Counted from the stretch's first letter, positions 1 to 21,882 are shown. The stretch is DNA of 44,329 bases from a virus (IMGVR_UViG_3300012267_000007:1-44329); one strand, 5' to 3'. Notes: generated from the letters alone by a model not told the origin. Translations and numbers: made by a program.

Positions 1-150
1 CCCCTCAGTTGTATTTTCATACATTTGAATGTGTGTTTTATCTTCTTCTTCCCAATCCGGATAACTATATTCAAACATAGGAATATAATTTCCATTGTTA
101 TTTGTTGGGTGTTCCCAATTTTCGGGCACTCTTCTTACTTCTCTTCCCAT
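1..150 (-). CDS. conserved phage hypothetical protein, runs off window start
   Basis: Manual translation MGREVRRVPENWEHP...PDWEEEDKTHIQMYENTTEG, open to position 1; not in the ORF track. Confidence 0.75.
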   Translation of the reverse strand, partial: MGREVRRVPENWEHPTNNNGNYIPMFEYSYPDWEEEDKTHIQMYENTTEG

Positions 151-178
151 GATTACATATTTATTAAAATTAAATGAT

Positions 179-256
179 TGGTACCCTATCCCAGCGATGC
201 TCTGAGTACTCCACCTTGAAAGGGTGACGAGATAACTAATCGTTCTTCAATAGGGC
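179..256 (-). tRNA. tRNA-Glu(TTC), encoded CCA, atypical T-loop AGCATCG
   Basis: Acceptor GCCCTAT/ATAGGGT, anticodon arm TCACC-CTTTCAA-GGTGG, T-stem CTCAG/CTGGG. Confidence 0.85.
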
Positions 257-366
257 ATTAAAAACCGGAGTTGTTGATGTGCAACAAACACTCTCCGGTT
301 ACCATTGCTGTAGTCACTTTTTCTATATCACAACAATATAGAACGAATTTTCAGTTGGATTTCTCG

Positions 367-440
367 AAGCGATGATCGGATTTGAACCGACGAATAATGG
401 TTTTGCAGACCACCCCCTTGAGCCACTTGGGTACATCGCT
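367..440 (-). tRNA. tRNA-Cys(GCA)
   Basis: Acceptor AGCGATG/CATCGCT, U73, anticodon arm GTGGT-CTGCAAA-ACCAT, GGTTCAAATCC. Confidence 0.95.
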
Positions 441-483
441 GTATTATTATAATTTGCAATTCGCAAATCACGAATTATTATTG

Positions 484-573
484 CTGTTCCGGTAGGACTC
501 GAACCTACATACCGTTCTGGACGGAATACGAAACGGTAACAGCGTTTTCTCTTCCCAATTAGAGTACGGAACA
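484..573 (-). tRNA. tRNA-Asn(GTT) with long variable region
   Basis: Acceptor TGTTCCG/CGGAACA, G73, AAACG-CTGTTAC-CGTTT, 22-nt variable region with a CCGT/ACGG hairpin. Confidence 0.85.
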
Positions 574-581
574 AATTAGTG

Positions 582-654
582 TGCGGGTAGTGGGGATCGA
601 ACCCACAACTTTCAGCTTGGAAGGCTAACACTCTGCCAATTGAGTTACACCCGC
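582..654 (-). tRNA. tRNA-Gly(TCC)
   Basis: Canonical cloverleaf, TTAGC-CTTCCAA-GCTGA. Confidence 0.95.
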
Positions 655-759
655 ATGTATCACATATATTGATATAATTAGGTATGTTGCACTATTTGTG
701 ATACATTATACCTGTATATGTGTTATTTATAAAATACGTCAACGAATAATTCAATTAAG

Positions 760-825
760 TGCCACAGATGGGATTCGAACCCATACCTTTTATCTATATC
801 AAATAAACGTTCTCAGTTACTAAAT
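760..825 (-). pseudogene. degenerate tRNA (intact T-arm and 3' acceptor strand, GAT-containing loop, no matching 5' acceptor strand)
   Basis: ATGGG-TTCGAAT-CCCAT-CTGTGGC-A; the upstream sequence does not pair with CTGTGGC. Confidence 0.55.
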
Positions 826-964
826 AATAAGAATACTTAATGTTTATGATCACTCAACACTTTTCTTCCTGTTACCATAGGGTTAGCTATTACCTACGCA
901 ACTATTACTGTTCACCTCGCCAGTTATTACTACCGGAACTTATTATATTATTAAAGAACTTTTT

Positions 965-995
965 AAATATACAATCAATTTTTATCAATGTCAAA
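965..995 (-). promoter_or_regulatory. promoter-like motif inside tRNA array 1
   Basis: TTGACA-N17-TATATT, also readable as Bacteroidota-type TTTG-N20-TATATTTA; followed by boxA-like AGTTCTTTAA. Confidence 0.4.
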
Positions 996-1004
996 TATAT
1001 TTTG

Positions 1005-1081
1005 TAGACACGGAAGGAATTGAACCTACATGTAACCGATTATCCTTTCTACTACATATCAGGCAGAGGGAATACGTGTCC
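1005..1081 (-). ncRNA. non-canonical tRNA-Ile(GAT)-like RNA lacking a D-arm at the normal position
   Basis: Acceptor GGACACG/CGTGTCT-A73, CTGC-CTGATAT-GTAG arm only about 8 nt after the acceptor, long variable region, GTAGG-TTCAATT-CCTTC T-arm. Confidence 0.65.
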
Positions 1082-1182
1082 ATTTTATTTTATATCATAA
1101 GCACCTCAATGTTTATTTGCATTTATAGCAATTGATATTGTGTATGAATACATAATACAACATCTATTTTTAATATGCAAAT

Positions 1183-1219
1183 AAAAAAAGGTTTGAACCC
1201 TTCCGAATTCAAACCTTTT
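1183..1219 (-). terminator. intrinsic terminator (attenuator 1)
   Basis: AAAAGGTTTGAATTC-GGAA-GGGTTCAAACC followed by T7. Confidence 0.85.
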
Positions 1220-1234
1220 ATGATAGTGTTATAA

Positions 1235-1244
1235 TGAATTCGGA
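1235..1244 (-). promoter_or_regulatory. antiterminator strand of attenuator 1
   Basis: TCCGAATTCA immediately after the leader stop is the exact complement of TGAATTCGGA in the terminator 5' arm and loop. Confidence 0.7.
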
Positions 1245-1331
1245 TTACATATTGAGCGTATTTTTACCATTCCCAATCTCAAAAGATTCGGTCACGCCAC
1301 AATTCGTAATTTCTATAATTCTTGAACTCAT
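1245..1331 (-). CDS. leader peptide 1 (28 aa) MSSRIIEITNCGVTESFEIGNGKNTLNM
   Basis: ATG..TAA ORF directly upstream of antiterminator, terminator and tRNA array 1; rich in Ile, Glu, Asn and Gly, with one Cys. Confidence 0.7.
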   Translation of the reverse strand: MSSRIIEITNCGVTESFEIGNGKNTLNM

Positions 1332-1375
1332 TATTTCTTATATTGTTTGCTTATACCATTAAATATGACATAAAA

Positions 1376-1486
1376 TTATTTTTTATCAGATTTTTTATCT
1401 TTTTTTCCAAATATTTTATCCATCTTCTTATCAAACTCCTTTTTGGATATTGATAATGGTCTGGGTTTACTTCCTTTTCCGTTCAT
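1376..1486 (-). CDS. small basic protein MNGKGSKPRPLSISKKEFDKKMDKIFGKK
   Basis: Internal ATG 2 nt after the upstream stop; GKGSKPRP..IF-type small phage peptide. Confidence 0.65.
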   Translation of the reverse strand: MNGKGSKPRPLSISKKEFDKKMDKIFGKKDKKSDKK

Positions 1487-1488
1487 AT

Positions 1489-1770
1489 CTATCCCAATAA
1501 AATGAATAATAATAGGGTAGTAGTGGAATATAACATGGGATAAATCAATCCATGCCAATCCATAAAACCCAATTTTTCAAGATCTCTAATCTCTCTGCCA
1601 ATATAAAACCCCATACCTAATCCGTATCCGGCAAGTAATCCATCAAACGGAAATGGTAATGATATAAGTATCACCACTAACATAATAGCTACTGATACAA
1701 TACCATGCCAGTGATAATAAGCTATTGGAAATTTAGATTTATAATCATTAAGTTTATCGAAGAACTTCAT
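1489..1770 (-). CDS. membrane protein
   Basis: 93 aa, three hydrophobic segments, tightly packed in the operon. Confidence 0.7.
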   Translation of the reverse strand: MKFFDKLNDYKSKFPIAYYHWHGIVSVAIMLVVILISLPFPFDGLLAGYGLGMGFYIGREIRDLEKLGFMDWHGLIYPMLYSTTTLLLFILLG

Positions 1771-1771
1771 A

Positions 1772-2113
1772 TTAATTTATTTTATTTATTAAGTATGTAA
1801 ATCTATATGATAATATAATTGAAATGGTTTGAACAATAAATATTGCCCATGCTCCAACTCCACCATATACAGATATAACTATAATGGAATACACTATTTT
1901 CCACCATGTAATTCTAATTCCACCCGAATCTTTAAATGTATATGGGTTATTGTTATACATTATCAATCCACCAACTATCATTAATAACATTATTGAAACA
2001 AAAATCAATCCGGCAGTTTGTACCCATTCAATATTTTCAATAAATCCAAAATAAACAATTATAAAATTGAGTATAAAAGATGATACGTATGATTTAATTT
2101 CTTTAGTAGTCAT
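1772..2113 (-). CDS. membrane protein
   Basis: 113 aa, about 4 TM segments. Confidence 0.7.
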   Translation of the reverse strand: MTTKEIKSYVSSFILNFIIVYFGFIENIEWVQTAGLIFVSIMLLMIVGGLIMYNNNPYTFKDSGGIRITWWKIVYSIIVISVYGGVGAWAIFIVQTISIILSYRFTYLINKIN

Positions 2114-2115
2114 AT

Positions 2116-2490
2116 TTATTTATATTTATTTATTAAATTAAATATAGTAGAATTTATTACCGTCACACCTAACATTAAATTGGCTACCATCCAAGCACCA
2201 CAAAACGCAAACGCCAATATCATCAGTACATCGATAAATCATTTAATATTAAATGATTTATCGAATATTTGATCTAATAAATCTTTTAAATCTTTGGATT
2301 CATGTTGCGATAATATATTATAATCAAATTTATAATATCCCATAACTATTAAAGAAAATATCGAAGACAAAAATAAAAGACTATAATACACGATGCCACT
2401 ATAATACAACCAATTTATATCGTTGATATATCCTACTATCACAGATACCGTAAATATTATTTCAATAATATTATTTATATATTTTTTCAT
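2116..2490 (-). CDS. membrane protein, paralog of 1772-2113; TGA(2239-2241)=Trp
   Basis: Readthrough adds WFIDVLMILAFAFCGAWMVA...LINKYK, matching GAW...LINKIN of the neighbour, and fills the gap to the next ATG. Confidence 0.7.
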
Positions 2491-2494
2491 ATTT

Positions 2495-2704
2495 CTAAAA
2501 TAAAAGGGTTGATGATATTATAAATGCTCCAACCAAACATATAATGCGTGAAACATTATACCAGAGAGTCATATTTTCTATATGGTCAGTGTATGATCTT
2601 AACGCTTCCAATATCGAAAAGAATACTACATATAATACAGCATAAAAGAATCCGGTAAGGACTATTATTGCTATAAAATTTTCTACAAACTGTGATCCAT
2701 CCAT
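2495..2704 (-). CDS. small membrane protein
   Basis: 69 aa, two TM segments. Confidence 0.6.
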   Translation of the reverse strand: MDGSQFVENFIAIIVLTGFFYAVLYVVFFSILEALRSYTDHIENMTLWYNVSRIICLVGAFIISSTLLF

Positions 2705-3001
2705 TTATTTATCCATTAATTTTAAAGTATTTTCTGTTTGTACACCCATCATCCTATCAATTTCTTTTCCATTTTCATCAATAAGAATGGTTGTGGGTAT
2801 TGACCGGACACCGAATTGAATAGCTAATTGTCTATTCTCTTCAATATCTACGTCATAAAAATTATATTCATTATTATTTTCTGCAAATTTCTCAAAGTTT
2901 TTTGCATAGACTTTACACGGTTGGCACCAGTTAGCCGAAAATTTGATGAAAGACTTCTTTGAACCAGTCGGCAATTGATCTTTTATTACTTCTGTTATCA
3001 T
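2705..3001 (-). CDS. trxA: thioredoxin
   Basis: FSANWCQPCK active site, GVRSIPT cis-Pro motif. Confidence 0.9.
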   Translation of the reverse strand: MITEVIKDQLPTGSKKSFIKFSANWCQPCKVYAKNFEKFAENNNEYNFYDVDIEENRQLAIQFGVRSIPTTILIDENGKEIDRMMGVQTENTLKLMDK

Positions 3002-3551
3002 TATTATTAGTTATTTTATTTATAATTTCGTTTAGTTTATATACATATATCTTTTCAACATTTTGTGAACGAAGATTTGTAATATATGTATCAACTTCTG
3101 AATTTTCTACAAATTTTGTTATTGAGTCAGCAATGACAATAGTAACATTTTCCAAATCCACATCATTATCCGTTACCACTTTCTCTTCTTCCCACTTAAA
3201 ATCCAATAAATCAATCTCTTCACCGGAATAAGAATCATGATATATTAATGAAGCTAACGAATTATCAAATTTTTGATTAGTGACATCATCTTTATCTTCA
3301 ACTTCAACATAAGATAAAGATTTATTTTCTAAACCTTTAATTAAACCAATATCAAAATAAATCCTTCTACCTTTCTTTACTACTGCATGGCGTAATTCAA
3401 CACCACAGCATTCATAACCTTGATGAACGGATTGGTATACATTTTTATCCGTTGTATCCAATAATGCCGCCACTTCCTTAACAGTTTTTAAATCACGATT
3501 AGCTTCCAGATTATTCTTTTTATATCCAATTTCTATTACATCATTGTCCAT
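2931..3551 (-). CDS. hypothetical protein
   Basis: 206 aa ORF in operon. Confidence 0.65.
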   Translation of the reverse strand: MDNDVIEIGYKKNNLEANRDLKTVKEVAALLDTTDKNVYQSVHQGYECCGVELRHAVVKKGRRIYFDIGLIKGLENKSLSYVEVEDKDDVTNQKFDNSLASLIYHDSYSGEEIDLLDFKWEEEKVVTDNDVDLENVTIVIADSITKFVENSEVDTYITNLRSQNVEKIYVYKLNEIINKITNNNDNRSNKRSIADWFKEVFHQIFG

Positions 3552-3932
3552 TTATTGACCTTTAATTTTTTTAATAACTTCTGTTAATTTGAATTCATCC
3601 TCTTCTTCGCCCTTAATAATTGAAAAAGCACGTAATAAAATGATCTCCGTCATATCAATGCGACTTGTAATACCTTTAGATTCAAAAAAAAGTATTATTT
3701 CTTCATCATCAGACCATAAATTCCACGCATTTCGAATTTCAGATCCCAAATTGGAGTATGCAGCCGGATCTGTTTGATCAGATCTTATTTTTACTTTATC
3801 GTCTTTAGAGAAAAAACAAGCTAATACTTCACTGGCTTGTTCTAAATTTTTTGGTATAAGATTAATATTTAACCATTCCGGATCTCTATTTTCATTTCCT
3901 TCATCATCATACATATCTATCATATCTATCAT
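3552..3932 (-). CDS. conserved hypothetical protein (DUF6794-like)
   Basis: IPKNLE...IRNAWNLW...FFESKGI...DM..IIL pattern, recognised from memory. Confidence 0.5.
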   Translation of the reverse strand: MIDMIDMYDDEGNENRDPEWLNINLIPKNLEQASEVLACFFSKDDKVKIRSDQTDPAAYSNLGSEIRNAWNLWSDDEEIILFFESKGITSRIDMTEIILLRAFSIIKGEEEDEFKLTEVIKKIKGQ

Positions 3933-3934
3933 AA

Positions 3935-4333
3935 CTAATCTCTTATTTGAATTCCGTTTTGTTTTCTATATTTCAATTCTTCTTGAAATGTTTCACGGTA
4001 ATGTACGGGTATTCTTGGAATTTCCAAAACATTTTTTATATGATCATCGCTCATTTCAGCAATAGATTTCCATTGTAACGGCTTATCTCCATCTTTCCCA
4101 CGTGTGCCCCAACACATCACTCTACGACGTTCTAAATGGTCAACATCCTCGTAATATACGTCTTTAACAATCTCATCACCATGAGCAGATCTTCTGATGT
4201 ATTCGTTGCCACCATCAACCATATATTCTTTACCATTAGCATCTTTGTATAGAACAAAATCATGCCCGTGATATGATCTCAAAAAAGTACCATCTGGTGT
4301 AATAATGGCGTTTTGTATTAGTTTTTTATTCAT
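3935..4333 (-). CDS. conserved phage hypothetical protein
   Basis: NAIITPDGT.L.S.H.HD..VDGG..YIRR and WGTRGKDG motifs; ATG start at MNKKLIQ. Confidence 0.75.
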   Translation of the reverse strand: MNKKLIQNAIITPDGTFLRSYHGHDFVLYKDANGKEYMVDGGNEYIRRSAHGDEIVKDVYYEDVDHLERRRVMCWGTRGKDGDKPLQWKSIAEMSDDHIKNVLEIPRIPVHYRETFQEELKYRKQNGIQIRD

Positions 4334-4334
4334 A

Positions 4335-4799
4335 TTATTTGTCCCCATACATATTAGTTCTCATTTCATCGATCATTTCATCGACCATTTCATCTATAAA
4401 TTTATCTCCTACAAAAAAATATTTAATTTCAAATACAACATTATACCACCAAAATTTAATATCTAATAATATTTTATCAATTTTATTTTTCAGTGTTGGA
4501 GCATCTTCATCTTTTAATGGAATATATAAAGAATATAATAAATATTCATCATAATCATCATCACATATATCTTTAATATAATCTATACGTTGAGCAATAA
4601 AATATTCCCTTCCCCAATAATCATCTTCTGTTACTGATGCCACTGAACCTTTAAACCATTCATATGCTTCAGTAGCTTCTTCTTCAGTTTCAAAAAGCCA
4701 ACACGACTCACACCATGAATGTGCATAACCAACCGGAGAAAATCCAGCAATAACTAATTCTTTATGACCTTGTTCAATTGATTTAAATACTCTATTCAT
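4335..4799 (-). CDS. hypothetical protein
   Basis: 154 aa ORF in operon. Confidence 0.65.
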   Translation of the reverse strand: MNRVFKSIEQGHKELVIAGFSPVGYAHSWCESCWLFETEEEATEAYEWFKGSVASVTEDDYWGREYFIAQRIDYIKDICDDDYDEYLLYSLYIPLKDEDAPTLKNKIDKILLDIKFWWYNVVFEIKYFFVGDKFIDEMVDEMIDEMRTNMYGDK

Positions 4800-5121
4800 A
4801 GAAATCTTGTGTTATAAAGTTACCTTCTTCATCAAAATCGACACTGGATTCAAAACCATAATATCCACCAAACTGATCATCATCAGCCGATAATAGAATT
4901 TGAAATATGTTTCTGGATTCTGATACGTTTGGAGAACTAAACCTTCTTACAGTTTTTTGTTCAACCACCAATTCGATACCAAACAATTTATACAATTCTA
5001 CAAACTTTTCCAAATCTGTTTTTGCTGTATGATTGCACGTATCCAGTATATCGTGATAATTAACGATTGATTTCAACTTGATCAATTCAGACATACTGAA
5101 ATCGTATGATCCTTTAACCAT
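4792..5121 (-). CDS. hypothetical protein (5' end possibly frameshifted from the ATG at 5198)
   Basis: 109 aa ORF; GGYYGF..FDEEGNF C-terminus. Confidence 0.55.
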   Translation of the reverse strand: MVKGSYDFSMSELIKLKSIVNYHDILDTCNHTAKTDLEKFVELYKLFGIELVVEQKTVRRFSSPNVSESRNIFQILLSADDDQFGGYYGFESSVDFDEEGNFITQDFYE

Positions 5122-5212
5122 TTTTTTAATGCGTTCATTACAATAATTGTTAAGTTGTGAACTACTTAACGCATATCGTATTCATTGTATAGATTCATAT
5201 TATTTTAATTAT

Positions 5213-5428
5213 TTAATCGTTACTTAAAGTCACAGATCCGGAAAACAATTCAAATTCATCCTCAGACCAATAAATTGTATGATATCCAATAGGATAATAT
5301 TCAGTTTCATTTAAAATTGACCCCCCCCCTCCGATATTAAAAAATACCACAAATCCTTTTGGGTGTTTACCAATATATGGATATTGACGTACATCCGGCT
5401 CTGAGTGTTCTTTTACTTCAAACTTCAT
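5213..5428 (-). CDS. small phage hypothetical protein
   Basis: 71 aa, ends W.E..FE.F.GSVTLSND. Confidence 0.7.
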   Translation of the reverse strand: MKFEVKEHSEPDVRQYPYIGKHPKGFVVFFNIGGGGSILNETEYYPIGYHTIYWSEDEFELFSGSVTLSND

Positions 5429-5453
5429 AATATTTAGTATTTAGTATTTATTC

Positions 5454-5660
5454 TTAAATTCCGTAATCTTTAATATAATATGAAATTTTAGACTGATAAT
5501 CTAATTGAATTTCTTCGTCTATAATTTCTTCTTTTTCTTGATATGTAAGTTCATCCCACTCTTGATCACTCATATAATCTCGTGTATTAATAATGGTTTG
5601 TTATGGTCTACTTTTTCCAGCATACCCATCTTCTACTTCCCAGTTGGTTTTAATTAACAT
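5454..5660 (-). pseudogene. small phage protein gene with in-frame TAA at 5601-5603
   Basis: MLIKTNWEVEDGYAGKSRP*QTIINTRDYMSDQEWDEL...IKDYGI; the frame stays open after the TAA. Confidence 0.6.
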
Positions 5661-5728
5661 AATTCTTTAAATTGGTTATAAATTCGTTTCACTAAATATA
5701 AATATAAATAGTGAATAATACAAAAAAA

Positions 5729-5810
5729 AGTGTAGACGTTCTGCCAATTAAACTAATATCATACCTTGTATCGGTATCTATATGGGATTCGAACCCATGC
5801 CTTCTACTCT
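5729..5810 (-). ncRNA. circularly permuted tRNA-like RNA (YrlA/Y-RNA-like topology)
   Basis: 5'->3': GTAGA, T-arm ATGGG-TTCGAAT-CCCAT, closed acceptor-like stem ATACC-GATACAA-GGTAT, D-arm TAGTTTAATTGGCAGAAC, TCTAC, then a T run. Confidence 0.7.
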
Positions 5811-5886
5811 GGGTGAATGATGGGGATCGAACCCACAGCCTTCAGGGTCACGACCTGACGATATATCCAATTGAGCTATATACTCC
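5811..5886 (-). pseudogene. degenerate tRNA-His(GTG)
   Basis: Intact anticodon arm TCAGG-TCGTGAC-CCTGA and T-arm; acceptor and D stems mispaired. Confidence 0.6.
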
Positions 5887-5896
5887 ATATATTAAA

Positions 5897-5970
5897 TGGG
5901 GTGAGAATGGGGATTCAAACCCCAACCAACAGGGACACAACCTGCCGTGCTATCATTACACCATTCTCAC
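5897..5970 (-). tRNA. tRNA-His(GTG), encoded CCA
   Basis: GTGAGAA/TTCTCAC, C73, GCAGG-TTGTGTC-CCTGT; no encoded G-1. Confidence 0.9.
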
Positions 5971-5975
5971 GTGTG

Positions 5976-6068
5976 CGGAAGGGGTGGGATTCGAACCCGA
6001 CACGTCTTTTACAACAAACAACGTTCAAAATTGTCTCCGCTACCCAGAATCTTTCGGATAACCCTTCC
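5976..6068 (-). tRNA. tRNA-Ser(TGA anticodon)
   Basis: GGAAGGG/CCCTTCC, G73, ACAAT-TTTGAAC-GTTGT, long variable region, enlarged D-loop, bulged T-stem. Confidence 0.8.
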
Positions 6069-6144
6069 ATATTCTCCCAATTTAAATTTAGAGGTTAACA
6101 TAAATTTAAGTTTTAAATGCTTTTCGGTATAGGGAGTAGTTTTG

Positions 6145-6217
6145 TACCCACGTGAGAATTCGAATCCCAATTTCTTAGTTCGTAGCCAAGTGTTCTGTCC
6201 GGTTGAACTACGTGGGC
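6145..6217 (-). tRNA. tRNA-Arg(ACG)
   Basis: GCCCACG/CGTGGGT, CTTGG-CTACGAA-CTAAG. Confidence 0.9.
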
Positions 6218-6233
6218 ATTATTTAATTTATTG

Positions 6234-6319
6234 TTGCCCCATTAGGATTCGAACCTAAAATGGAATAGTATTCCTCTGGATTCAAAGTCCAGTGACTTTG
6301 CCAATTCGTCTACAGGGCA
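6234..6319 (-). tRNA. tRNA-Gln(TTG) with long variable arm
   Basis: U1-A72 acceptor TGCCCTG/TGGGGCA, CTGGA-CTTTGAA-TCCAG, extra arm GGAAT-ACT-ATTCC. Confidence 0.85.
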
Positions 6320-6333
6320 TTATATTATTTATG

Positions 6334-6408
6334 TACTCAGAGTGGGATTCCAACCCACAGGCATCATATTCTAAGTATGATAGGTATAGCTATTCCCTTC
6401 ATCTGAGC
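6334..6408 (-). tRNA. tRNA-Leu(TAG) with short variable loop
   Basis: GCTCAGA/TCTGAGT, A73, TCATA-CTTAGAA-TATGA, T-loop TTGGAAT. Confidence 0.85.
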
Positions 6409-6441
6409 GTTATTTATAACTTAAATAATAACAGTTATTTA

Positions 6442-6519
6442 TGGTCAAGAGTACAGGCTTCGCTCCTGTGATCTCCTACGTCCAAGGTAGGCGGGATGGC
6501 TGGACTTCCCCAACTCTTG
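6442..6519 (-). tRNA. tRNA-Pro(TGG), encoded CCA, atypical T-loop AGCGAAG
   Basis: CAAGAGT/ACTCTTG, CCTAC-CTTGGAC-GTAGG. Confidence 0.9.
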
Positions 6520-6532
6520 TTATATTTTATTG

Positions 6533-6606
6533 TACGCTTAGAGGGATTCAAACCCCCAACCCTACGGATAGAAGCCGTATGCTCTGTTCAGTTGAGCTAT
6601 AAGCGC
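6533..6606 (-). tRNA. tRNA-Arg(TCT)
   Basis: GCGCTTA/TAAGCGT, TACGG-CTTCTAT-CCGTA. Confidence 0.93.
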
Positions 6607-6619
6607 ATATATTATTTAG

Positions 6620-6694
6620 TATCCATGGTGGGATTCCAACCCACAACACTCAGGATTTAAATCTGATACCTCTTAGCTATTGGGTTACATGGAC
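6620..6694 (-). tRNA. tRNA-Leu(TAA) with short variable loop
   Basis: GTCCATG/CATGGAT, A73, TCAGA-TTTAAAT-CCTGA, T-loop TTGGAAT. Confidence 0.85.
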
Positions 6695-6696
6695 AT

Positions 6697-7089
6697 TTAT
6701 TTCATTTTTATATTATATTTTTCTATTAATTGGTTACACCTTTTATAATTAGCCCCCTTTGCTGCTATTCCAACTTCCAATAATGCCTGTCTTATTGATT
6801 TATTGTTTTTTAATGCTTTAATCATTTTATCTTCCGGTATGGACGGCATTCCCGTATTTATATTTCTACCCCTTCAAGTTTTAGTTTGAGTATGACAATT
6901 TGGACATAACAATCTTAAATTTTTTCTTTTGTTATTAGTATTATCACCATTTATATGATCCAATTCTAATACTAAGGGTTTATTATTTCACTTATTTAAT
7001 TTACAATGTAAACATTTATTGTCTTGTTGTTCCAATTGTAATTTTCTTCCAAGATTTTCAAATAATGATCACAAAATTTCATCATTCAT
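6697..7089 (-). CDS. HNH endonuclease (130 aa), three TGA=Trp
   Basis: CLHC..K*NNKPLVLELDHINGDNTNN...NLRLLCPNCHTQTKT*RGRN; TGA at 7069, 6988 and 6874, the last two at typical Trp positions. Confidence 0.9.
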
Positions 7090-7096
7090 TTACATG

Positions 7097-7184
7097 AGGA
7101 AGACAGCGGTAACGATCCGCAACCGGATTAACCGATTCAATTGTTTAGCAAACAGTGACCAACACCATGATGGCAATATCTTCC
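7097..7184 (-). tRNA. tRNA-Ser(GCT), 8/4 cloverleaf
   Basis: 8-bp acceptor GGAAGATA/TGTCTTCC, 4-bp T-stem GCGG/CCGC, ACTGT-TTGCTAA-ACAAT, long V-arm AATCGG/CCGGTT. Confidence 0.85.
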
Positions 7185-7255
7185 AAATTATTTCAATACG
7201 TCAAAGATCAACAATTATTTGTTAAACAGTATATATTTATTCATATCATATAAAT

Positions 7256-7291
7256 AAAAAAAGCCGAATCTTTTTATGGATCCGGCTTTTT
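7256..7291 (-). terminator. intrinsic terminator (attenuator 2)
   Basis: AAAAAGCCGGATC-CATAAAAA-GATTCGGC followed by T7. Confidence 0.85.
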
Positions 7292-7314
7292 AGTTTAATG
7301 AAAAGATTTTTCTT

Positions 7315-7398
7315 TTACAAACTTCCAAACATACCGAATCCATTCCATCTCGGATGGCGCTGTAAACTCGATTGTGATAAGAGGTTTGTTGTATACAT
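7315..7398 (-). CDS. leader peptide 2 (27 aa) MYTTNLLSQSSLQRHPRWNGFGMFGSL
   Basis: ATG..TAA ORF upstream of the terminator and tRNA array 2; codons 6-17 are all cognate to array tRNAs. Confidence 0.8.
   Translation of the reverse strand: MYTTNLLSQSSLQRHPRWNGFGMFGSL
7333..7343 (-). promoter_or_regulatory. antiterminator strand of attenuator 2
   Basis: ATGGATTCGGT pairs (11 bp, 2 G-U) with GCCGGATCCAT at 7286-7276, the terminator 5' arm and loop. Confidence 0.7.
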
Positions 7399-7420
7399 AA
7401 TTGTATTATTTTTATATGAT

Positions 7421-7453
7421 TAAATATAAGGAAAAATATTTTTTTAAAACAAA
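7421..7453 (-). promoter_or_regulatory. putative promoter for leader 2
   Basis: TTTG-N21-TATATTTA, resembling Bacteroidota TTTG-N19-21-TAnnTTTG; weak evidence in AT-rich DNA. Confidence 0.4.
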
Positions 7454-7459
7454 TTAATT

Positions 7460-7873
7460 TTAAAATCTAAATCCATTTTTTAATGAATCTACAAAGTCTT
7501 CATCAAAAATACTGGTTAAATCATCAATACCGGATACTGAAAGCACTTCAAACATCAATTTATTATGCATAATACCTTCAATATTCGATGCCAAATATTC
7601 CATATTTTGACGAACTTGTTCTTCACTTTCAAATTTAACGCCAGATAATTTGGCTTTATTAATTACTGAATGAAGAATATCTTCTTGAATTGTTCTGTAC
7701 TGTTTTGATAGTTTAGCGGATACGGGGAGATCTTCTTCCTCAATTTCTTCCATTTGATCCTCTAAAGATTTAATTTCATCGAGTGTTTCCTGACTCATTT
7801 GATCAGTCTCTTCAGATTCATTTAAATCACTATCATCCCCTACCAAAGTAAGGTTACTTTTTTTCTCTTCCAT
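7460..7873 (-). CDS. acidic hypothetical protein
   Basis: 137 aa ORF. Confidence 0.7.
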   Translation of the reverse strand: MEEKKSNLTLVGDDSDLNESEETDQMSQETLDEIKSLEDQMEEIEEEDLPVSAKLSKQYRTIQEDILHSVINKAKLSGVKFESEEQVRQNMEYLASNIEGIMHNKLMFEVLSVSGIDDLTSIFDEDFVDSLKNGFRF

Positions 7874-7894
7874 AAATATATGTATTGTTTTGAG

Positions 7895-8662
7895 TTATAA
7901 TTGTTGTGCTAAACAAACTACTGCCAGCACTTCTATTTGATTATCTTCTAAAATACGCAAAGCGTTGGAGATATATTCCCCATTTTTATAAAAATCTGTC
8001 ACTAAAACGGCTGTCGTACCTTCATGACTTTTAAGTTTTTCATAATCCACATCTACTAAACCGTCAACATAAGATAAAAGTTCAGCATCAATATTCACAT
8101 CATCAAAAGTGTAATTTCTATCTTCCCGATGCAATTGAGAAAATATATCGTTTAAATGTTTTTTAATATCTTTTGGTGCTTTCTCGGTAACGGCTAATTC
8201 ATCAATATTAAGGGACTCTTTTGCATATAAAATGTCATCATATCTCTTTTCAGTATATACTGTTAGCTTAGAAAAAAATCTATGAAATACATCATCGCCA
8301 CTATTCAATCCGAAATGGCAAATATCTTTCATATTTCTATGCAGGATTGATGACATTTGTTTAGACATCTCTTCAGCCCCAATATCTACCCAATTTTCTA
8401 CATATTCATTAACTTCTACCTGAGAGTTGACAGCTTCAATAAATTCACGAGATGATTTGAAATTTGTTGGTAAATCATCTTTTGATACTTTGTAAATATA
8501 AAACACCGGAGTTAGGTTATGTAAACTATCAACGTATGGCTGAAATGTTTTTGTACCCCCACCAACTTTCGTAATAAGAGTAGAATCATTGCCGACTTCG
8601 ATATAAATATCTCCATCTTCTAATGTGTCAATTACCGATCTTCCTTCCTGATTACTACTCAT
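7895..8662 (-). CDS. hypothetical protein with degenerate phosphoribosyltransferase-like C-terminus
   Basis: AVLVTDFYKNGEYISNALRIL...VLAVVCL resembles hhhDDhhTTG.T of PRTases. Confidence 0.45.
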   Translation of the reverse strand: MSSNQEGRSVIDTLEDGDIYIEVGNDSTLITKVGGGTKTFQPYVDSLHNLTPVFYIYKVSKDDLPTNFKSSREFIEAVNSQVEVNEYVENWVDIGAEEMSKQMSSILHRNMKDICHFGLNSGDDVFHRFFSKLTVYTEKRYDDILYAKESLNIDELAVTEKAPKDIKKHLNDIFSQLHREDRNYTFDDVNIDAELLSYVDGLVDVDYEKLKSHEGTTAVLVTDFYKNGEYISNALRILEDNQIEVLAVVCLAQQL

Positions 8663-8945
8663 TGTTTGAATCTTTTAATACTAATTCACCATCAGAATTA
8701 TAACGGTAAACATTATTACTGGTTTTCTCTTCATGGATACGTTTGCCATTCTTAATATTTCGATAAACAACTTTAGAATATCCATCACCGGATAACTTTT
8801 GCTTACGAATAATATATTCCCGATCCAATTTTTTCTTTTCCTTTTTGGTCATGGATCTATATTGTTTGCGAAACATCAAAATGTCCTTATCACTCAATTC
8901 TCGATCTTCTTCTAAAATATTAATGTATTGATTTTCCGTAAGCAT
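8655..8945 (-). CDS. hypothetical protein
   Basis: 96 aa ORF coupled by TAATG to the upstream gene. Confidence 0.7.
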   Translation of the reverse strand: MLTENQYINILEEDRELSDKDILMFRKQYRSMTKKEKKKLDREYIIRKQKLSGDGYSKVVYRNIKNGKRIHEEKTSNNVYRYNSDGELVLKDSNNE

Positions 8946-9283
8946 TATTCACCTCAATCTGCTAATCGTGTATATCTAAAATAATTTCTAATTCTCTTCC
9001 AAAACTCTTTACCATGTGATGGCGCATTTAATAATAATATAAATACCCTCTCCGGCACCCTATAATATTCATATTCTGTTCCGTATGTACCTTCTTCACC
9101 CTTTACCTTATTATCCGATTTAAACCGGACACGTAATGTTTTATCTTTGGGATCATATCAAACAGCATGTAAATTCGAAGACTCAACTTCAACGTACTGC
9201 CTGTATAAGTCTTTCACGTTTCGATTATTTATTCTAACCGATACAGACTCATTTATGTAACTTCGTAATTTTCTTTTAAGCAT
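8945..9283 (-). CDS. KTSC-domain protein (112 aa), two TGA=Trp
   Basis: VESSNLHAV*YDPKDKTLRVRF...YEYYRVP...LLNAPSHGKEFWKRIR; TGA at 9158 and 8954; the final TAA overlaps the next ATG. Confidence 0.85.
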
Positions 9284-9312
9284 TTCGGAATATTTTAACT
9301 ATACACTTTGTA

Positions 9313-9984
9313 TTAATTATCATTATTATCATTTTTATTAAAATATTCCAAACCTTTATCCTCTATGGTTTGTAATAGTTCCACACATTCCTTCAGATCA
9401 TTTACAATATGAATATCAATGCCATAGTCGTATCGGACATTTTCTACCGACAGCGTTCGATTATGGGGCGCTCTCATGAGTATAAGAACTGATGCTTGCC
9501 TACAATCATGAAGATTATTAATTTTATCATCTATTACAACATCAGCCGGATAAGTAGATTTTGGTTCACCCGTTAAAATCAGCTTATCAGCTACATCTTC
9601 ATTCATATACTTCTTCAACCAACCAGTCTTCTGAAGTAAAACAGATTCATAATTTTCCATTGCTTTTCCAGTAAAATGAGAAACAATACGATAAGTAAAT
9701 TTCATAGTATTGTTTTCTACAAATTGTAATACTTTAGACAATCCATCTTTTGGTGGACAATTTTCGAAAAAATCGTGTAAACCAAAATAATCATAAATTT
9801 GGTACCCAAAATCAGATATTTCATGAAGATTCCACTGTGTAAAATCCAGATCTTCGCCCGTGGCATCGTGGTGTACTTTTCTCCAATGATTGGTTAAATC
9901 ATTAAGCACATCATCAAAATCAAAATTTATTACTATTCTCTGATCTTCTGATCCTATATTTGTTTCTTTCTCTTTGCCTTCCAT
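9313..9984 (-). CDS. 5'(3')-deoxyribonucleotidase, HAD family
   Basis: FDFDDVL, K..WL, K...ADVVIDDK, APHN motifs. Confidence 0.85.
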   Translation of the reverse strand: MEGKEKETNIGSEDQRIVINFDFDDVLNDLTNHWRKVHHDATGEDLDFTQWNLHEISDFGYQIYDYFGLHDFFENCPPKDGLSKVLQFVENNTMKFTYRIVSHFTGKAMENYESVLLQKTGWLKKYMNEDVADKLILTGEPKSTYPADVVIDDKINNLHDCRQASVLILMRAPHNRTLSVENVRYDYGIDIHIVNDLKECVELLQTIEDKGLEYFNKNDNNDN

Positions 9985-10364
9985 GTATTAAATTTTAATT
10001 TATATTTTAAGAATTTGTGTACTAAATAATCGAAATAGTTATGAAAATACATATTCATTATCCATAGATAACTATCATCGTCTTGTTTTTTTATAATATG
10101 TAATATCCAAGAATCCGTTAACATGTTATGATCCGGTAAGTCTTCAATCTCCATATACTGTATGTAATCTTTGAATCTCGATATCTTACTTACCACTGTT
10201 GGCTCCATAAATGGTCTGTAAATTTTCAATCCGTTATCTAAATGACCACCAGATGTTATAGGTGCATCTTTATCATAATTATAAACACGGGATAATAATT
10301 TCCCGTGTTCAAATTGAAATTGATCCAAATTAGTAAAATTTAATCGTAAATGAATTATATGCAT
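9954..10364 (-). CDS. hypothetical protein
   Basis: 136 aa ORF. Confidence 0.6.
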   Translation of the reverse strand: MHIIHLRLNFTNLDQFQFEHGKLLSRVYNYDKDAPITSGGHLDNGLKIYRPFMEPTVVSKISRFKDYIQYMEIEDLPDHNMLTDSWILHIIKKQDDDSYLWIMNMYFHNYFDYLVHKFLKYKLKFNTWKAKRKKQI

Positions 10365-14818: not shown

Positions 14819-15982
14819 ATGGCAGATTTTCCAGTAGAAATTGTTAATTATTGGTCTGGGTCGGCAAGTCCGGTATCTGGTTCCACTTCTTTTGGCTATT
14901 TCGATAATGATCCAAAATTTCAAACAGACGCACCAAAATTGGCTAATCATATAGCTACACAATTGGGGTGACCCGTAAATGATATTGAAATCACGGATAA
15001 TGAAATATATGATTGTATAGAATTAGCCATGATGGAATTTAGTTATTTAATTAACGAATTTCGAACTGAAGAAGAATTCTTTGAATTACTTGGTCAGCCA
15101 TCCGGATCAGATTTTTCTAATAAATTAATTTTCCCATCTATTAAAAGTGTTATTAGATTATCAGAGGGATATAATATTGAAGCTGGTGTTCCAAGTGAAA
15201 TTACAATGTATACCGGATCCATAGATGTAGTTAAGGGTCAACAAAATTACAACTTACAGGAAGAATATTTTGATGTGGTACACCCATCAGAACACTCTTT
15301 CTCTATTCAACGTGTATTTCATTATCGTACACCTGCGGCTCGTGCATTTCTTAATTCACAATTCAACTATCCTATTAATGGTGTAGGCAACGTAACAGTT
15401 GCCGATGGATACTTCTACACATTAATGCCGTTTGCATGAGATGTATCCCGTATGCAATCGATTAATACTCATAGGGATTTGCGCCTGTCCAATTACGCCT
15501 TTGAAATACATGGGAATAATATACGACTATTTCCGGTTCCGGCTGTACCATTCAAATTAAATTTCCATTACACATTGGGTTCAGAAGAGCAAGGAGTAAT
15601 GCCGAATGATCTGAATAGTATTTATAATCAGGACGATCTAATTGTCAAGCCGTCCGATATTAATTTTGGAATGATTTCATGGCAACATATTAATAGTCAT
15701 TACCGAACATGAGTTATTAAATATTCCACGGAAATGGCAAAAAAGAAAATGGGTATCAACCGGAGAAAGTATAATAATATTGATTATGCTGGTGGTTCAA
15801 TAGCTTTGGATGGGGATCAGTTAATATCTGAGGCTTCAACAAAAATGGATGCTATGGAACAAGATATAAAGGAATCATTATCAAAAATTAGTAAAGATCA
15901 AGGTTTAACAAATAAAGCCAATATGATCCAAAACCAAAAACAAATTCTTAATGGTACACCATTGGGTATTTATAGAGTGTAA
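14819..15982 (+). CDS. neck/head-completion protein (T4 gp13-like, 387 aa), three TGA=Trp
   Basis: Single frame joins three track ORFs: LG*PVNDIEI (14969), PFA*DV (15437), YRT*VIKYS.EMAK..MG..R.KY (15710), LDGDQL. Confidence 0.85.
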
Positions 15983-16947: not shown

Positions 16948-19572
16948 CTACATTTGCGGTGGCATTGCCACGTATTGAACATTTTCATCATCATCTTCGT
17001 TAATACTAATCATACCTTCTGTTGTAAGAAGTAGGGAAGAAATGGATGATGCATTTTGTAACGCCAATCTAATTACTTTTGTTGGATCAATAATACCGGA
17101 ATCTAATAGATCTTCTATTTGACCCGTTTTAACATTAAATCCATATGGTATTCCTTTTTTGAGAATATCATATTTGTATTTAGAAATATTATCATTTTCG
17201 AATCCGGCATTAATCAATATTTGATTAAACGGTTCTCGGATAGCACCCAAAATAATCGACTTTCCTTTTTCCTGATCTTCATTTTCCAATTTAAAATCAC
17301 TTGATGTAATTAATTCCGAAATATGTAATAAAGCAGATCCACCACCAATAGTATAACCCTCATCAATAGCCGCTTTTGTAGCATATAGAGCATCTTCTAT
17401 CCGATCCTTTTTCTCCTGTATTTCAACTTCAGATGATCCACCCACTTTAATTACAGCAACACCATTAGTTAATGAGCTATACCGTTCTACAACTCTTTCA
17501 CGCTCATAATCACTTAATGATTCATTTTTAATTTCAGATTCTAACAGTTCAATCCGGTTTTGTAATTCATCCGGATCCGACTTACCATCAATAATTACAG
17601 TAGCATCTCTATGAATTTTTACTTTCTTAGCAACACCCAGATCCTTTTTAGTAACTGAATCTAATTTTCTACCCGTATCTGTTGTGATTAGTGTACCTCC
17701 GGTGAGCGCACACATATCTTTCATCATTTCCAATCGCCTATCACCAAATGCTGGTGATTTTACAGCCGCACATTTCACCATACCCTGCATTTTATTGACA
17801 ACCATGGTAGATAGTGCTTGCCCCTCAACATTCTCAGCAATAATAAGTATTGGTCGTTCCAAATCTACAGCAATATTTAATACGTGTGCTACAGATTTCA
17901 CATTTGCCACTTTACCATCAAAAAATAGAATTAAACAATTCTCAAATTCCACAGTATGTTCTTTCGAATTAGTAACAAAATAAGGGGATAAATAACCCGA
18001 TTCAAATTGTACACCCTCTACAAATTCAAGATAAGTATCCATTGTAGATGAATTATCAATAGATACATATCCATCCCGACCAACTTTTTTGACGGAATCT
18101 TTAATCAAATTTGCAATATAATCATCCCCGTTTGCAGAGATTCGTGCAATCCTTTCTATCTGTTCATCTGAATCAATTTCCTGACTCATGTTTTGTAAGT
18201 CATCAACAATCTGTGATACCGTCTTGTCGATCCCACGTTTGATCGATACGGCGTTCGAACCCTTTGACACAAGGTCTAACCCTTTGTTTAATATTGCTTG
18301 TGATAGAACCGTCGAGGTTGAAGTATTATGGGTAAGAATATATCCATCGGTAACGTATAAACTATCTTCATTGCTAACTTTAATACATCTCATTGGAACG
18401 TGTTTTCCGGTAGGAGTTATACTAACAATTTTATGACCATATTTATATCCCTTTAATTGATTAAATCTGTAAATAGATGTATCGGAATATGAATCGGGAT
18501 CATTACTTCTATTATGTAGTCTATAATATAATGGAATACCCATACTGTAACATAACTCCCTGAAATCTTCAGCCAATTTATCACTAATAGTGATAAATTC
18601 AAATAATCCCTTATTATTTATATGTCCATCCGTATCCAATAATCCTTGAAGTAATTGTTCTCTGTTTTCTCTGGAATTATACAAATAAACCTTTGGTATG
18701 AATTTTTCAGAACTCTTCATATTATCTAATCCTGTTTCTTTAACAGCATCTAATAATTGTTGCCCATAAAATCGCAAACGAATGCAATTTTTCTTTGGTA
18801 TATCCTCTGTTGTCATATTTACATTTTCGGGCATTACCAATTTATCAATAATGTGCTTTTTATTGTAACCGATAGTAACTTCTATCGCCCGTTCCTCAGT
18901 TTTTAAATAACCATCTCCAATTAAAACGCCAACTGTATATGGGTCAAGTGGAACCTCTTGTTCATTAAATTCGACTTCATTTTTTCTAACATAATATCCA
19001 TGTTGTACATCACTATTAGAATATTGAAACTTTATTTTTTTAGATTCTAATAGTTCTTTAACAGACAATGTTTTTTTAGAACCGTAGTGAGTAATTATTG
19101 ACCATAAATGTGTATCATCACATTCTACAACTCTACCATCAGAAAATTTAACTTCATGTAGTTCAAGATTACCTTTTTCATGCACTTCTTCTACTACTTG
19201 TATACTATTATCTGATCCATTGATAATATCACCCTTTTTAATATCTCCCATAGTAGTCCACCCATTAGGTGTTGATATTTTACTATGATACGGTTGACAA
19301 CCATCTCCCGTTTCTTTAGCTGTCTTTGATGCTACGGATTTTACCAGATCAGCACCCAATCTTTCTTTAGGATCTTTCAAATTTATATGATTAGCTACCG
19401 TCACACCATCCTTTGTAATGAGTGGTTCATCACCATCCCTTTGAATGATTATGTTTCGACCACTCGCACCAAGAGTTGTTTTTACTACATTGGCTACCTT
19501 ATTCACGCCCGAAGCTAATGTTGCACGTGCTGAATAACCATGGTCAATATTATTATATTCTTTGTTCATCAT
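16948..19572 (-). CDS. groEL: chaperonin GroEL interrupted by an intein (549 aa after splicing)
   Basis: ITKDGVTVA, GDG|intein|TSTSTVL, GYLSPYF, AVKSPAFGDRR, EKKDRIEDAL, GIIDPTKV. Confidence 0.95.
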   Translation of the reverse strand: MMNKEYNNIDHGYSARATLASGVNKVANVVKTTLGASGRNIIIQRDGDEPLITKDGVTVANHINLKDPKERLGADLVKSVASKTAKETGDGCQPYHSKISTPNGWTTMGDIKKGDIINGSDNSIQVVEEVHEKGNLELHEVKFSDGRVVECDDTHLWSIITHYGSKKTLSVKELLESKKIKFQYSNSDVQHGYYVRKNEVEFNEQEVPLDPYTVGVLIGDGYLKTEERAIEVTIGYNKKHIIDKLVMPENVNMTTEDIPKKNCIRLRFYGQQLLDAVKETGLDNMKSSEKFIPKVYLYNSRENREQLLQGLLDTDGHINNKGLFEFITISDKLAEDFRELCYSMGIPLYYRLHNRSNDPDSYSDTSIYRFNQLKGYKYGHKIVSITPTGKHVPMRCIKVSNEDSLYVTDGYILTHNTSTSTVLSQAILNKGLDLVSKGSNAVSIKRGIDKTVSQIVDDLQNMSQEIDSDEQIERIARISANGDDYIANLIKDSVKKVGRDGYVSIDNSSTMDTYLEFVEGVQFESGYLSPYFVTNSKEHTVEFENCLILFFDGKVANVKSVAHVLNIAVDLERPILIIAENVEGQALSTMVVNKMQGMVKCAAVKSPAFGDRRLEMMKDMCALTGGTLITTDTGRKLDSVTKKDLGVAKKVKIHRDATVIIDGKSDPDELQNRIELLESEIKNESLSDYERERVVERYSSLTNGVAVIKVGGSSEVEIQEKKDRIEDALYATKAAIDEGYTIGGGSALLHISELITSSDFKLENEDQEKGKSIILGAIREPFNQILINAGFENDNISKYKYDILKKGIPYGFNVKTGQIEDLLDSGIIDPTKVIRLALQNASSISSLLLTTEGMISINEDDDENVQYVAMPPQM
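18325..19299 (-). mobile_element. intein (325 aa) with LAGLIDADG homing endonuclease
   Basis: N-terminal CQPYHSKISTPNGW, block B CDDTHLW, GVLIGDG and LQGLLDTDG, C-terminal YILTHN followed by Thr. Confidence 0.95.
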
Positions 19573-19597
19573 ATTATTTTATGTTGTTTTATTTAAA

Positions 19598-20308
19598 TTA
19601 AATTTCAAATCCGTATAATACAGTATTGTTTAGATCACGCCCCTTCATAAAAATACCATCCCCCTCTCGTGATCCGGCAACATTAGTATTACCTTCTATT
19701 GTTACTACTTTGTTCTGTTTTGAATTTACTATTGATTTAAAAGGATCTACAAAATATACGTGTCCATAACCCGATTCTTTTACCCATCCACCAATATATA
19801 CATTATTTCTTCTTAACTGTTTAATATCTGTTATTTGATTGTTATCCGAACGGGTAGAAGCATATGTTATCCATTCCCGTGCCAATGCAGATTTAAATTC
19901 AAAATTGGTGTACGTTTTTTCCATGCACCACGAAATAAAACAGGCACACCAAGCATATCCTTTCTTTTCTTTATCATCAAAATCAAATGATGGGAAACAT
20001 ACCTTAATAAATTCATCTACTAATAATCCCCTATTATCAGAAGATCCATCCCCATCAACATCCAATTCAACCGCTTCTCCCACTAAACTATTAGCCAATT
20101 TAATATGTGGTAATTCCTTTTCCATGATGGTTGGTTTAATAGTAGAATCCATCATATCCTTATTCATTATTCCGGTAGTGGGTAATTGATTAAGTTCCTG
20201 CCATGCTTTAATTGCAGATTCAGTATTATCCCCAAAAATTCCATCTGCGTGAATATTTAAAAAATATTGTACAATTCTAACGTTTTTACTTATTTCGCCC
20301 TTTTGCAT
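19598..20308 (-). CDS. lysin-like protein: peptidoglycan-binding domain plus CHAP amidase
   Basis: ADGIFGDNTESAIKAWQ..TG; AWCACFISW, GHV, TIEGNT...SREG. Confidence 0.85.
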   Translation of the reverse strand: MQKGEISKNVRIVQYFLNIHADGIFGDNTESAIKAWQELNQLPTTGIMNKDMMDSTIKPTIMEKELPHIKLANSLVGEAVELDVDGDGSSDNRGLLVDEFIKVCFPSFDFDDKEKKGYAWCACFISWCMEKTYTNFEFKSALAREWITYASTRSDNNQITDIKQLRRNNVYIGGWVKESGYGHVYFVDPFKSIVNSKQNKVVTIEGNTNVAGSREGDGIFMKGRDLNNTVLYGFEI

Positions 20309-20310
20309 TA

Positions 20311-20907
20311 TTATAATTTTATTGGTTCTGATTTTTGTAATTGTGATCTATAAATATCTTTTTGACCCATTATGTCATAAATATCATCGAAAGAATACGG
20401 TTCACCCTGAAATTTTCCATCCACTGAAACATCAAATATGCGCTCATCTGGTGCCGAAAAATAATTATATCTAACTGCACCATGTAAATGTCAAGCTCCC
20501 TGATCCATACGATTTCATACCCGTTGTGGGTGGTGATTCATTGTTACAGGAATATTATTAATAAAAATATCTAACTTGTAATATACAGAAGCTAATTCTT
20601 TTTTACAAGATAAAATGTTGTCGTGTGTATCATCGGTACCAACTATTAGATTGATTCTACCATTTAAATTTTTCAATACATCTTTTACTTCTTTTTGATT
20701 CCCAACCGAGAAATTACCTAAATGGAAAACTATATCTCTGGGTTGTACTTTTTGATTTCATTTAATAATAAAATCATCTTTCATTGCTTGATGAGAAGGA
20801 TAACCCCTCTCTATAGCTGTTGTATTGTCAAAAAAACGGTGATCAGATATATAATGTATATCTTCTCTAACTTTGCTGATCCCCGACAGTCCTTTCAGGT
20901 AATTCAT
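20311..20907 (-). CDS. calcineurin-like phosphoesterase homolog (198 aa), three TGA=Trp, degenerate metal ligands
   Basis: YISDHRFF...IK*NQKVQPRDIVFHLGNFS...LNGRINLIVGTDD...HHPQRV*NRMDQGA*HLHGAV...FDVSVD; TGA at 20758, 20515, 20491. Confidence 0.85.
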
Positions 20908-21558: not shown

Positions 21559-21882
21559 TTAATTGTTTATATATGTGTTTGTATTATAAAAATCTAAAAG
21601 TAATTTTTCAATCTGGATAGACAAAAATTCAATATCCTTTGTATTAACTAAATATGTTCTTTTACCATTTTTATAAAAAAAATAATTACTATCTGATTTA
21701 TTCACAAAAATATTAACCGGATCTATAAATTCTAATGATAATAAAGATTTTAATGAGTTTTCTCTCAATATGTGCATATATATTTGATGGGATCTGCCCC
21801 TTAAATTATGGAAAAAGAAGTGGCAAAATGCCAGCTTCTTTTTCACATCCCCTTCCAATTTTATAGTATTAGTAAAATTCAT
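21559..21882 (-). CDS. hypothetical protein
   Basis: 107 aa ORF coupled by TAATG to phoH. Confidence 0.6.
   Translation of the reverse strand: MNFTNTIKLEGDVKKKLAFCHFFFHNLRGRSHQIYMHILRENSLKSLLSLEFIDPVNIFVNKSDSNYFFYKNGKRTYLVNTKDIEFLSIQIEKLLLDFYNTNTYINN

Follow-up and report, generated by a model that had tools for sequence, protein, structure and literature searches.

The window analysed here is the whole virus record IMGVR_UViG_3300012267_000007, a 44-kb stretch of 44,329 nt from a large, AT-rich (31% GC), T4-like phage carried by lake and salt-lake metagenomes, with no RNA data set among those listed. Its gene products include a family B polymerase, clamp loaders, the Dda helicase, GroEL, PhoH and a baseplate wedge. 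TGA encodes Trp in this phage: under that reading, the ORF coverage of the window rises from 0.73 to 0.85, and PhoH, an HNH gene and several others become joined ORFs under table 4 (at 21882-22559, 14819-15982 and 6697-7089, among other loci). A Trp-TCA tRNA was not found in the contig. Most window genes lack a Shine-Dalgarno sequence, and initiation of this kind with A at -3 has been described (PMC6847099). Hence, the genes without Shine-Dalgarno sequences suggest a Bacteroidota-type host. The GroEL gene (874 aa, 16948-19572, minus strand) carries an insert, probably an intein, that matches profile regions of terminase and helicase-loader families.

Array 2 of the phage holds nine tRNA genes, five of which were called by ARAGORN and seven by Rfam, with both Ser genes called by neither. 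In the order of transcription, we found:

7095-7184, minus strand: tRNA-Ser(GCT) with an atypical T loop (anticodon read from the sequence)
6697-7089, minus strand: HNH endonuclease gene inside the array, with three TGA codons, open only with TGA as Trp (table 4 ORF)
6620-6694, minus strand: tRNA-Leu(TAA) (Rfam; anticodon read from the sequence)
6532-6606, minus strand: tRNA-Arg(TCT) (ARAGORN and Rfam)
6442-6519, minus strand: tRNA-Pro(TGG) (ARAGORN)
6334-6408, minus strand: tRNA-Leu(TAG) (Rfam; anticodon read from the sequence)
6233-6319, minus strand: tRNA with a TTG (Gln) anticodon (ARAGORN and Rfam)
6144-6217, minus strand: tRNA-Arg(ACG) (ARAGORN and Rfam)
5974-6068, minus strand: tRNA-Ser(TGA), atypical (read from the sequence)
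5897-5970, minus strand: tRNA-His(GTG) (ARAGORN and Rfam)
5812-5885, minus strand: degenerate second GTG tRNA-like gene (Rfam, 29.4 bits)
about 5722-5807, minus strand: circularly permuted tRNA-like element with the T arm first, a loop-closed acceptor-like stem and the D arm last (by eye)

The HNH gene had been missed in the first-pass annotation. Among the two Ser genes only Ser-GCT folds into a cloverleaf; in other lake runs, homologues of Ser-TGA are about 80% similar to it. The tRNA with the TTG anticodon has a long variable arm, as in Leu/Ser/Tyr tRNAs, and its charging identity is uncertain; both Leu tRNAs have short variable arms and a TTGGAAT T loop. The permuted element, which gave no Rfam match, presumably recalls YrlA-type Y RNAs, and the T8 run past it is probably the end of the array.

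Upstream of the array lie a short leader ORF and an RNA region with alternative folds:

7421-7452, minus strand: candidate host-type promoter, TTG-N21-TATATTTA (sequence match)
7315-7398, minus strand: leader ORF of 27 aa, MYTTNLLSQSSLQRHPRWNGFGMFGSL, ending in TAA, with A at -3 and no Shine-Dalgarno sequence
7348-7383, minus strand: control block, codons 6-17 of the leader, LLSQSSLQRHPR, covering all nine array codon boxes
7363-7375, minus strand: segment 1, anti-antiterminator, predicted to pair with segment 2 if no ribosome covers segment 1 (computed fold)
7333-7343, minus strand: segment 2, 5' strand of the antiterminator, 4 nt past the last control codon (computed fold)
7276-7286, minus strand: segment 3, common to the antiterminator (2:3) and the terminator (3:4) (computed fold)
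7256-7291, minus strand: intrinsic terminator hairpin and U tract (terminator search and fold)
7200-7209, minus strand: boxA-like motif

The promoter was scored against what we take to be the Bacteroidota-type consensus. Motifs similar to that at 7200-7209, all of which we take to be boxA-like, are found at 951-960 and before the first tRNA in L028, L074, L115 and L142; this recurrence between terminator or promoter and first tRNA suggests host Nus antitermination across the arrays.

The leader ORF and its codons 6-17 are exactly as first annotated, and the amino acids of the block are the six carried by the array (Leu, Ser, Arg, Pro, Gln and His). With the nine array anticodons, ordinary wobble and four-way reading for U34 family boxes, the cognate set is 25 codons. 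When all six frames of the window are read, the block, at 12 codons, exceeds every other array-cognate run, and no other run reaches nine boxes, the next best having seven. On the chance of such a run, a point raised with the first-pass annotation, 0 of 200,000 dinucleotide shuffles of 7290-7459 reached the block's match, compared with 4 of 200,000 for the ORF alone and 32 of 200,000 for the 36-nt block alone. The claim that all 12 codons can be read by array tRNAs, with all nine anticodons represented, stands for the run and the boxes, with the caveat that CTC is read by an assumed four-way wobble and that both Ser anticodons were read from the sequence. A Watson-Crick codon is present for only four of the nine anticodons (TTA, TCA, CAA and AGA), and four more are matched by ordinary wobble. 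The match between leader and array holds mainly at the amino-acid level.

The pairing of 7343-7333 with 7286-7276 that had been proposed for the antiterminator (11 bp) was borne out by computed folds. As for its suggested extensions, AAAAGA/TCTTTT is part of the antiterminator minimum free energy fold; AGTTTG/TAAACT is compatible with the hairpin but was seen in the terminator-state fold. A further helix, 1:2 (7375-7363 with 7343-7333), which the first-pass annotation overlooked, completes a trp-type 1:2/2:3/3:4 layout. The computed region energies are -13.7 kcal/mol for 1:2, -21.4 kcal/mol for 2:3 and -16.1 kcal/mol for the 3:4 terminator, and the leader region folds with z=-7.2 relative to shuffles.

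We then modelled the folds with the RNA under the ribosome masked and the U tract trimmed to 1-2 U, which describes equilibrium and not kinetics. In this model, the antiterminator was dominant only for A-site codons 6-17, 6-16, 6-16, 5-16 and 5-15 (footprints of 12-16 nt), and the terminator formed when the ribosome was absent, stalled at the first codons or past the block; with four U able to pair, the switch was partial only. Shuffled leaders switched in 1 of 150 cases, and in 0 of 150 over a window of at least 8 codons. The modelled read-through is confined to stalls at about codons 6-17; the structural window and the codon block, which were derived independently, coincide.

No cultured close relative was found (the best DNA polymerase match is 34%, in a record with one tRNA), single-protein scans based on two genes nearby gave no relatives, the scan with the gene directly upstream returned its own copy only, and further scans for close kin returned G001 and G002 only. 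A scan of IMG/VR by terminator pattern yielded 26 terminators, all of them unrelated.

G002, the closest relative found, is a syntenic orthologue, identified by an alignment-based scan, with 45% identity in the helicase, 57% in the DNA polymerase and the same upstream gene run. Its leader, MENKTYILSSLSLRRHSQPLLC, differs in sequence and has the same amino acids, with all nine boxes in another order, and the array behind it encodes Pro, Gln, Ser-TGA, Leu-TAA, Leu-TAG, Ser-GCT, Arg-TCT and a degenerate ACG gene (by eye). The 1:2, 2:3 and 3:4 helices are rebuilt there from unrelated sequence. The G002 code appears to be table 11 (coverage 0.754 vs 0.756), and its leader stops at a TGA just before segment 2, where the leader in the window has TGG. 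Hence, the longer leader in the window may, speculatively, be a by-product of recoding. In the mask model, the read-through window of G002_B covers only codons 14-18 of block 8-21, and G002_A hardly switches. The other array of G002 serves 16 amino acids, and 26 of 26 residues of its leader belong to this set, which is broad. The 51-aa ORF that lies past the G002_A terminator has no terminator after it and was therefore not accepted as a leader. We also noticed by eye a TROVE/Ro60-like gene in the G002 array region (L028, about 19026-20698).

Leader content was found to covary with array content in other phages, as the first-pass annotation had proposed to check. In the jumbo records G005 (374 kb) and G008 (482 kb), the tRNAs are split into the blocks NYQ, FPV, WH, IR, LS, KMGT and DACE, each preceded by a residue-matched leader and a terminator (for example, MRFNNNNQQQYQQNNYSG..., MKTTLSLSLSLSLSLSG... 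and MMNTVNITRIIRIRRRS...). Six G008 leaders were taken by a rule fixed before the DNA was read and the seventh by eye; an inner or second offered ORF was chosen as leader in two cases, and we placed the array boundaries and some of the start codons by eye. Over 19 leader/array pairs from six records (G000, G002, G005, G006, G007 and G008), a leader's own array ranks first in 15 of 19 (a tie being taken as first) and never lower than third, and none of 200,000 permutations matched the observed tracking of array tRNA sets by leader composition. Exact permutation gave 1/5040 within G005 and 1/720 within G008. G005, G006 and G008 are related and have one common partition; hence, the independent lineages number about four. 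The GenBank huge phages LR756501 and LR756502 add three pairs with other partitions, namely C/L, F/H/W/K and R/S, with 8/21, 13/27 and 10/23 matching leader residues, respectively.

We found no leader before the T4 tRNA array, the G003 cluster, the G002 Met/Cys cluster, the G005 Cys/Pyl, Asn and Leu/Pyl groups, or the G008 Cys/Pyl pair and single tRNAs; for Synechococcus B3, RHph_TM30 and XM05, the sequence covered did not reach the head of the array. Hence, the leader design as read from these sequences appears widespread but not universal. Leaderless groups of the jumbo phages G005 and G008 include tRNAs with CTA (amber) anticodons (L109 1378, L111 1188 and L119 1279).

The locus thus combines a 5' leader ORF, function-related control codons, a terminator and an antiterminator that exclude each other by computed folds, a 1:2 helix and, in the model, a stall window that masks segment 1 and leaves segment 2 free, and this architecture is kept in G002. 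The attenuator proposed in the first-pass annotation gains support from three independent lines, which are the three-helix layout with its matching modelled read-through window, the rebuilt syntenic orthologue and the covariation over several lineages. The attenuator is likely real. We consider it most likely that the element is a multivalent leader-peptide attenuator, coupled to the ribosome, that reads the decoding capacity for the array's amino acids and is subject to negative feedback via the tRNAs made.

RNA polymerase would start near 7415, and a ribosome would initiate at 7398. With ample charged Leu, Ser, Arg, Pro, Gln and His tRNAs, the ribosome would move onto segment 2, 3:4 would form and transcription would stop at about 7256. 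A ribosome waiting at codons 6-17 would mask segment 1 and leave segment 2 free, allowing 2:3 to form and the transcript to extend over the HNH gene and all nine tRNAs. Without translation, 1:2 and 3:4 would form and the array would be off. The tRNAs made in this way would in turn decode the leader, which gives a negative feedback loop. What the switch senses would be decoding capacity, however it is lowered (uncharged, scarce, cleaved or degraded tRNA), and amino-acid starvation, phage protein-synthesis demand, host tRNA decay and defence tRNases are alike candidate triggers of the stall.

The finer specificity first claimed for the switch fared less well. Isoacceptor-level matching found no specific support, as synonymous diversity over 20 leaders was 153 against an expectation of 147 (p=0.11). 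Leu, Ser and Arg are each represented by both of their codon boxes here (chance 0.15) and in G002 (chance 0.24). Anticodon nucleases as the trigger likewise gained no specific support. That exactly those tRNAs are supplied which are depleted was overstated, because any stall would turn the entire array on. Since leader and array correspond mainly in amino acids, the match does not separate tRNase sensing from starvation sensing.

A second leader and switch lie before array 1:

1245-1331, minus strand: second leader ORF of 28 aa, MSSRIIEITNCGVTESFEIGNGKNTLNM
1183-1244, minus strand: second switch, in which 1244-1235 is computed to pair with 1211-1202 in competition with the terminator at 1219-1183
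179-1081, minus strand: array 1, with Ile(GAT)-like, Gly(TCC), Asn(GTT), Cys(GCA) and Glu(TTC)-like tRNAs (ARAGORN/Rfam; Ile and Glu by eye)

The second ORF (1331-1245) ends directly on a 10-nt strand able to pair with the 5' arm of the terminator. Its residues come from the Ile/Gly/Asn/Cys/Glu set in 15 of 27 cases (two of these tRNAs being read by eye), and this leader is weaker than that before array 2. Array 1 may extend past the contig end. Leaders of this kind predict missing or unrecognised tRNAs, and leader 1 suggests Thr, Val, Phe, Ser and Lys tRNAs past the contig end. Two further features were noticed. Degenerate RNAs of tRNA-like form, whose D arms are reduced and whose anticodon loops read GAT and ACG, occur at 1005-1081 (minus strand) in the window and at about 1700-1762 (minus strand) in L107, as one type in both phages, and 760-940 (minus strand) is a structured non-coding stretch ending in a T arm, with a weak tmRNA-fragment match.

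The main rival to control by the attenuator is bypass by a downstream promoter, in which the attenuator is real but minor, array RNA comes mostly from promoters past the terminator, and the contribution of the leader is no more than a boost, or the leader is decaying in this lineage. The weak promoter-like match TTG-N21-TAATTT at 7185-7214, which overlaps the boxA-like motif, could drive the eight downstream tRNAs; however, it overlaps the first tRNA, inside which its transcript would start, and such matches arise by chance at 0.89 per kb. Array 1 contains promoter-like sites, clear ones lie past terminator 1 at about 1182 and 994, and others lie behind the G002_A terminator; hence, gating of array 1 may be incomplete. 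Several tRNAs in the window are degenerate as well. In contrast, the G002_B gap has no promoter-like match, leader and switch are intact here, and the jumbo arrays begin almost directly past the U tract, the first tRNA in G005 and G008 often being about 5-40 nt from it, which leaves little room for a promoter. On this balance, we regard a minor attenuator as unlikely.

It is quite improbable that the leader instead couples translation to the tRNA precursor in another way (RNA stability, processing or Rho-type polarity), with hairpins incidental to control. Such coupling would account for the 5 of 15 modelled leaders without an equilibrium switch, the other 10 having one. It would not be expected to leave U-tract terminators after nearly all leaders (our rule found one for 15 of 20 and none for 5 of 20), nor an antiterminator duplex that beats shuffles (≤10/200) in 11 of 15 leaders at a near-fixed distance from the block, the best partner of the terminator 5' arm starting -1 to 16 nt past the cognate block in 14 of 15.

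Chance, in the form of a GC-richer hairpin region that happens to hold C-rich codons, is hardly credible: the array codons are 25 of the 61 sense codons and the block sits in paired RNA, but composition-preserving shuffles, the reordering of the same amino acids in the orthologue and covariation with wholly different sets (NYQ, IR, DACE and FHWK) refute it unless leader selection was circular, against which stand the six G008 leaders chosen by the prior rule.

The multivalent attenuator reading places the phage element beside several known systems. trpL, hisL, leuL and pheL are leader-peptide attenuators of amino-acid operons, and thrL and ilvL are multivalent. The phage element resembles them in its short leader ORF, clustered control codons, 1:2/2:3/3:4 helices and intrinsic terminator, and in the termination predicted without translation. 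It differs in being viral, in controlling tRNAs and not biosynthetic enzymes, in polling six amino acids through nine boxes, each once or twice, and in that its product itself reads the sensor. In the E. coli pheST attenuator, too, charged tRNA acts through a leader peptide (pheM) on part of the translation machinery; however, that system is cellular and involves one amino acid and a synthetase target. T-box riboswitches also convert tRNA charging state into antitermination, binding uncharged tRNA directly and without translation, and T-box control of tRNA genes has been reported in Firmicutes. Positions 1-10000 of the window had no Rfam T-box match at E≤1, which ruled out a T-box identity. 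The attenuator of pheL is described in PMC3082878.

The Anabaena trn operon with TrcR, a spare tRNA array induced under impaired translation (PMC8421152, PMC10272220), is the nearest functional analogue that we found in print. It differs in that control is by repressor-binding repeats at the promoter (PMC8421152), and neither 'attenuat' nor 'leader' occurs in PMC8421152. Phage tRNAs offset tRNA-cleaving defences, as with T5 against PARIS/AriB, which provides a selective reason for a phage tRNA supply that responds to tRNA loss; the portion of PMC12409363 covered gives no sensing element for the T5 supply. The first-pass annotation knew of no such control for phage tRNA arrays, and our literature search, which covered titles and abstracts of openly available papers, likewise returned no description of leader-peptide control of tRNA genes; the main text of the huge-phage paper PMC7162821 has 0 occurrences of 'attenuat' or 'leader'.

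Why phages carry tRNAs is debated, with codon bias, host tRNA degradation and counter-defence as the candidate reasons. A built-in sensor would show which shortage each phage expects and opens this question to direct testing, and classical attenuation would extend to tRNA genes and to viruses, with a product that feeds back on its own sensor. Tentatively, and with the odds somewhat against us, we propose that several large-phage lineages keep their tRNA blocks each behind its own codon-listing attenuator as a self-reading sensor array; this might detect which host tRNAs an infection has drained or has exposed to cleavage, anticodon-nuclease defences being one example of a cause, and switch on the matching block only, as an inducible counter-defence that needs no protein.

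Variation among strains was seen around the leader. No changes inside the leader were found in the three runs that cover it wholly or partly; hence, there is no strain-level covariation. The promoter spacer is 1 nt shorter in runs X3, X5 and X12, and the X3 strain carries 7 additional nt in the leader 5' UTR and lacks 114 nt of the 3' part of the HNH gene (sites 6712-6827, 7411 and 7439).
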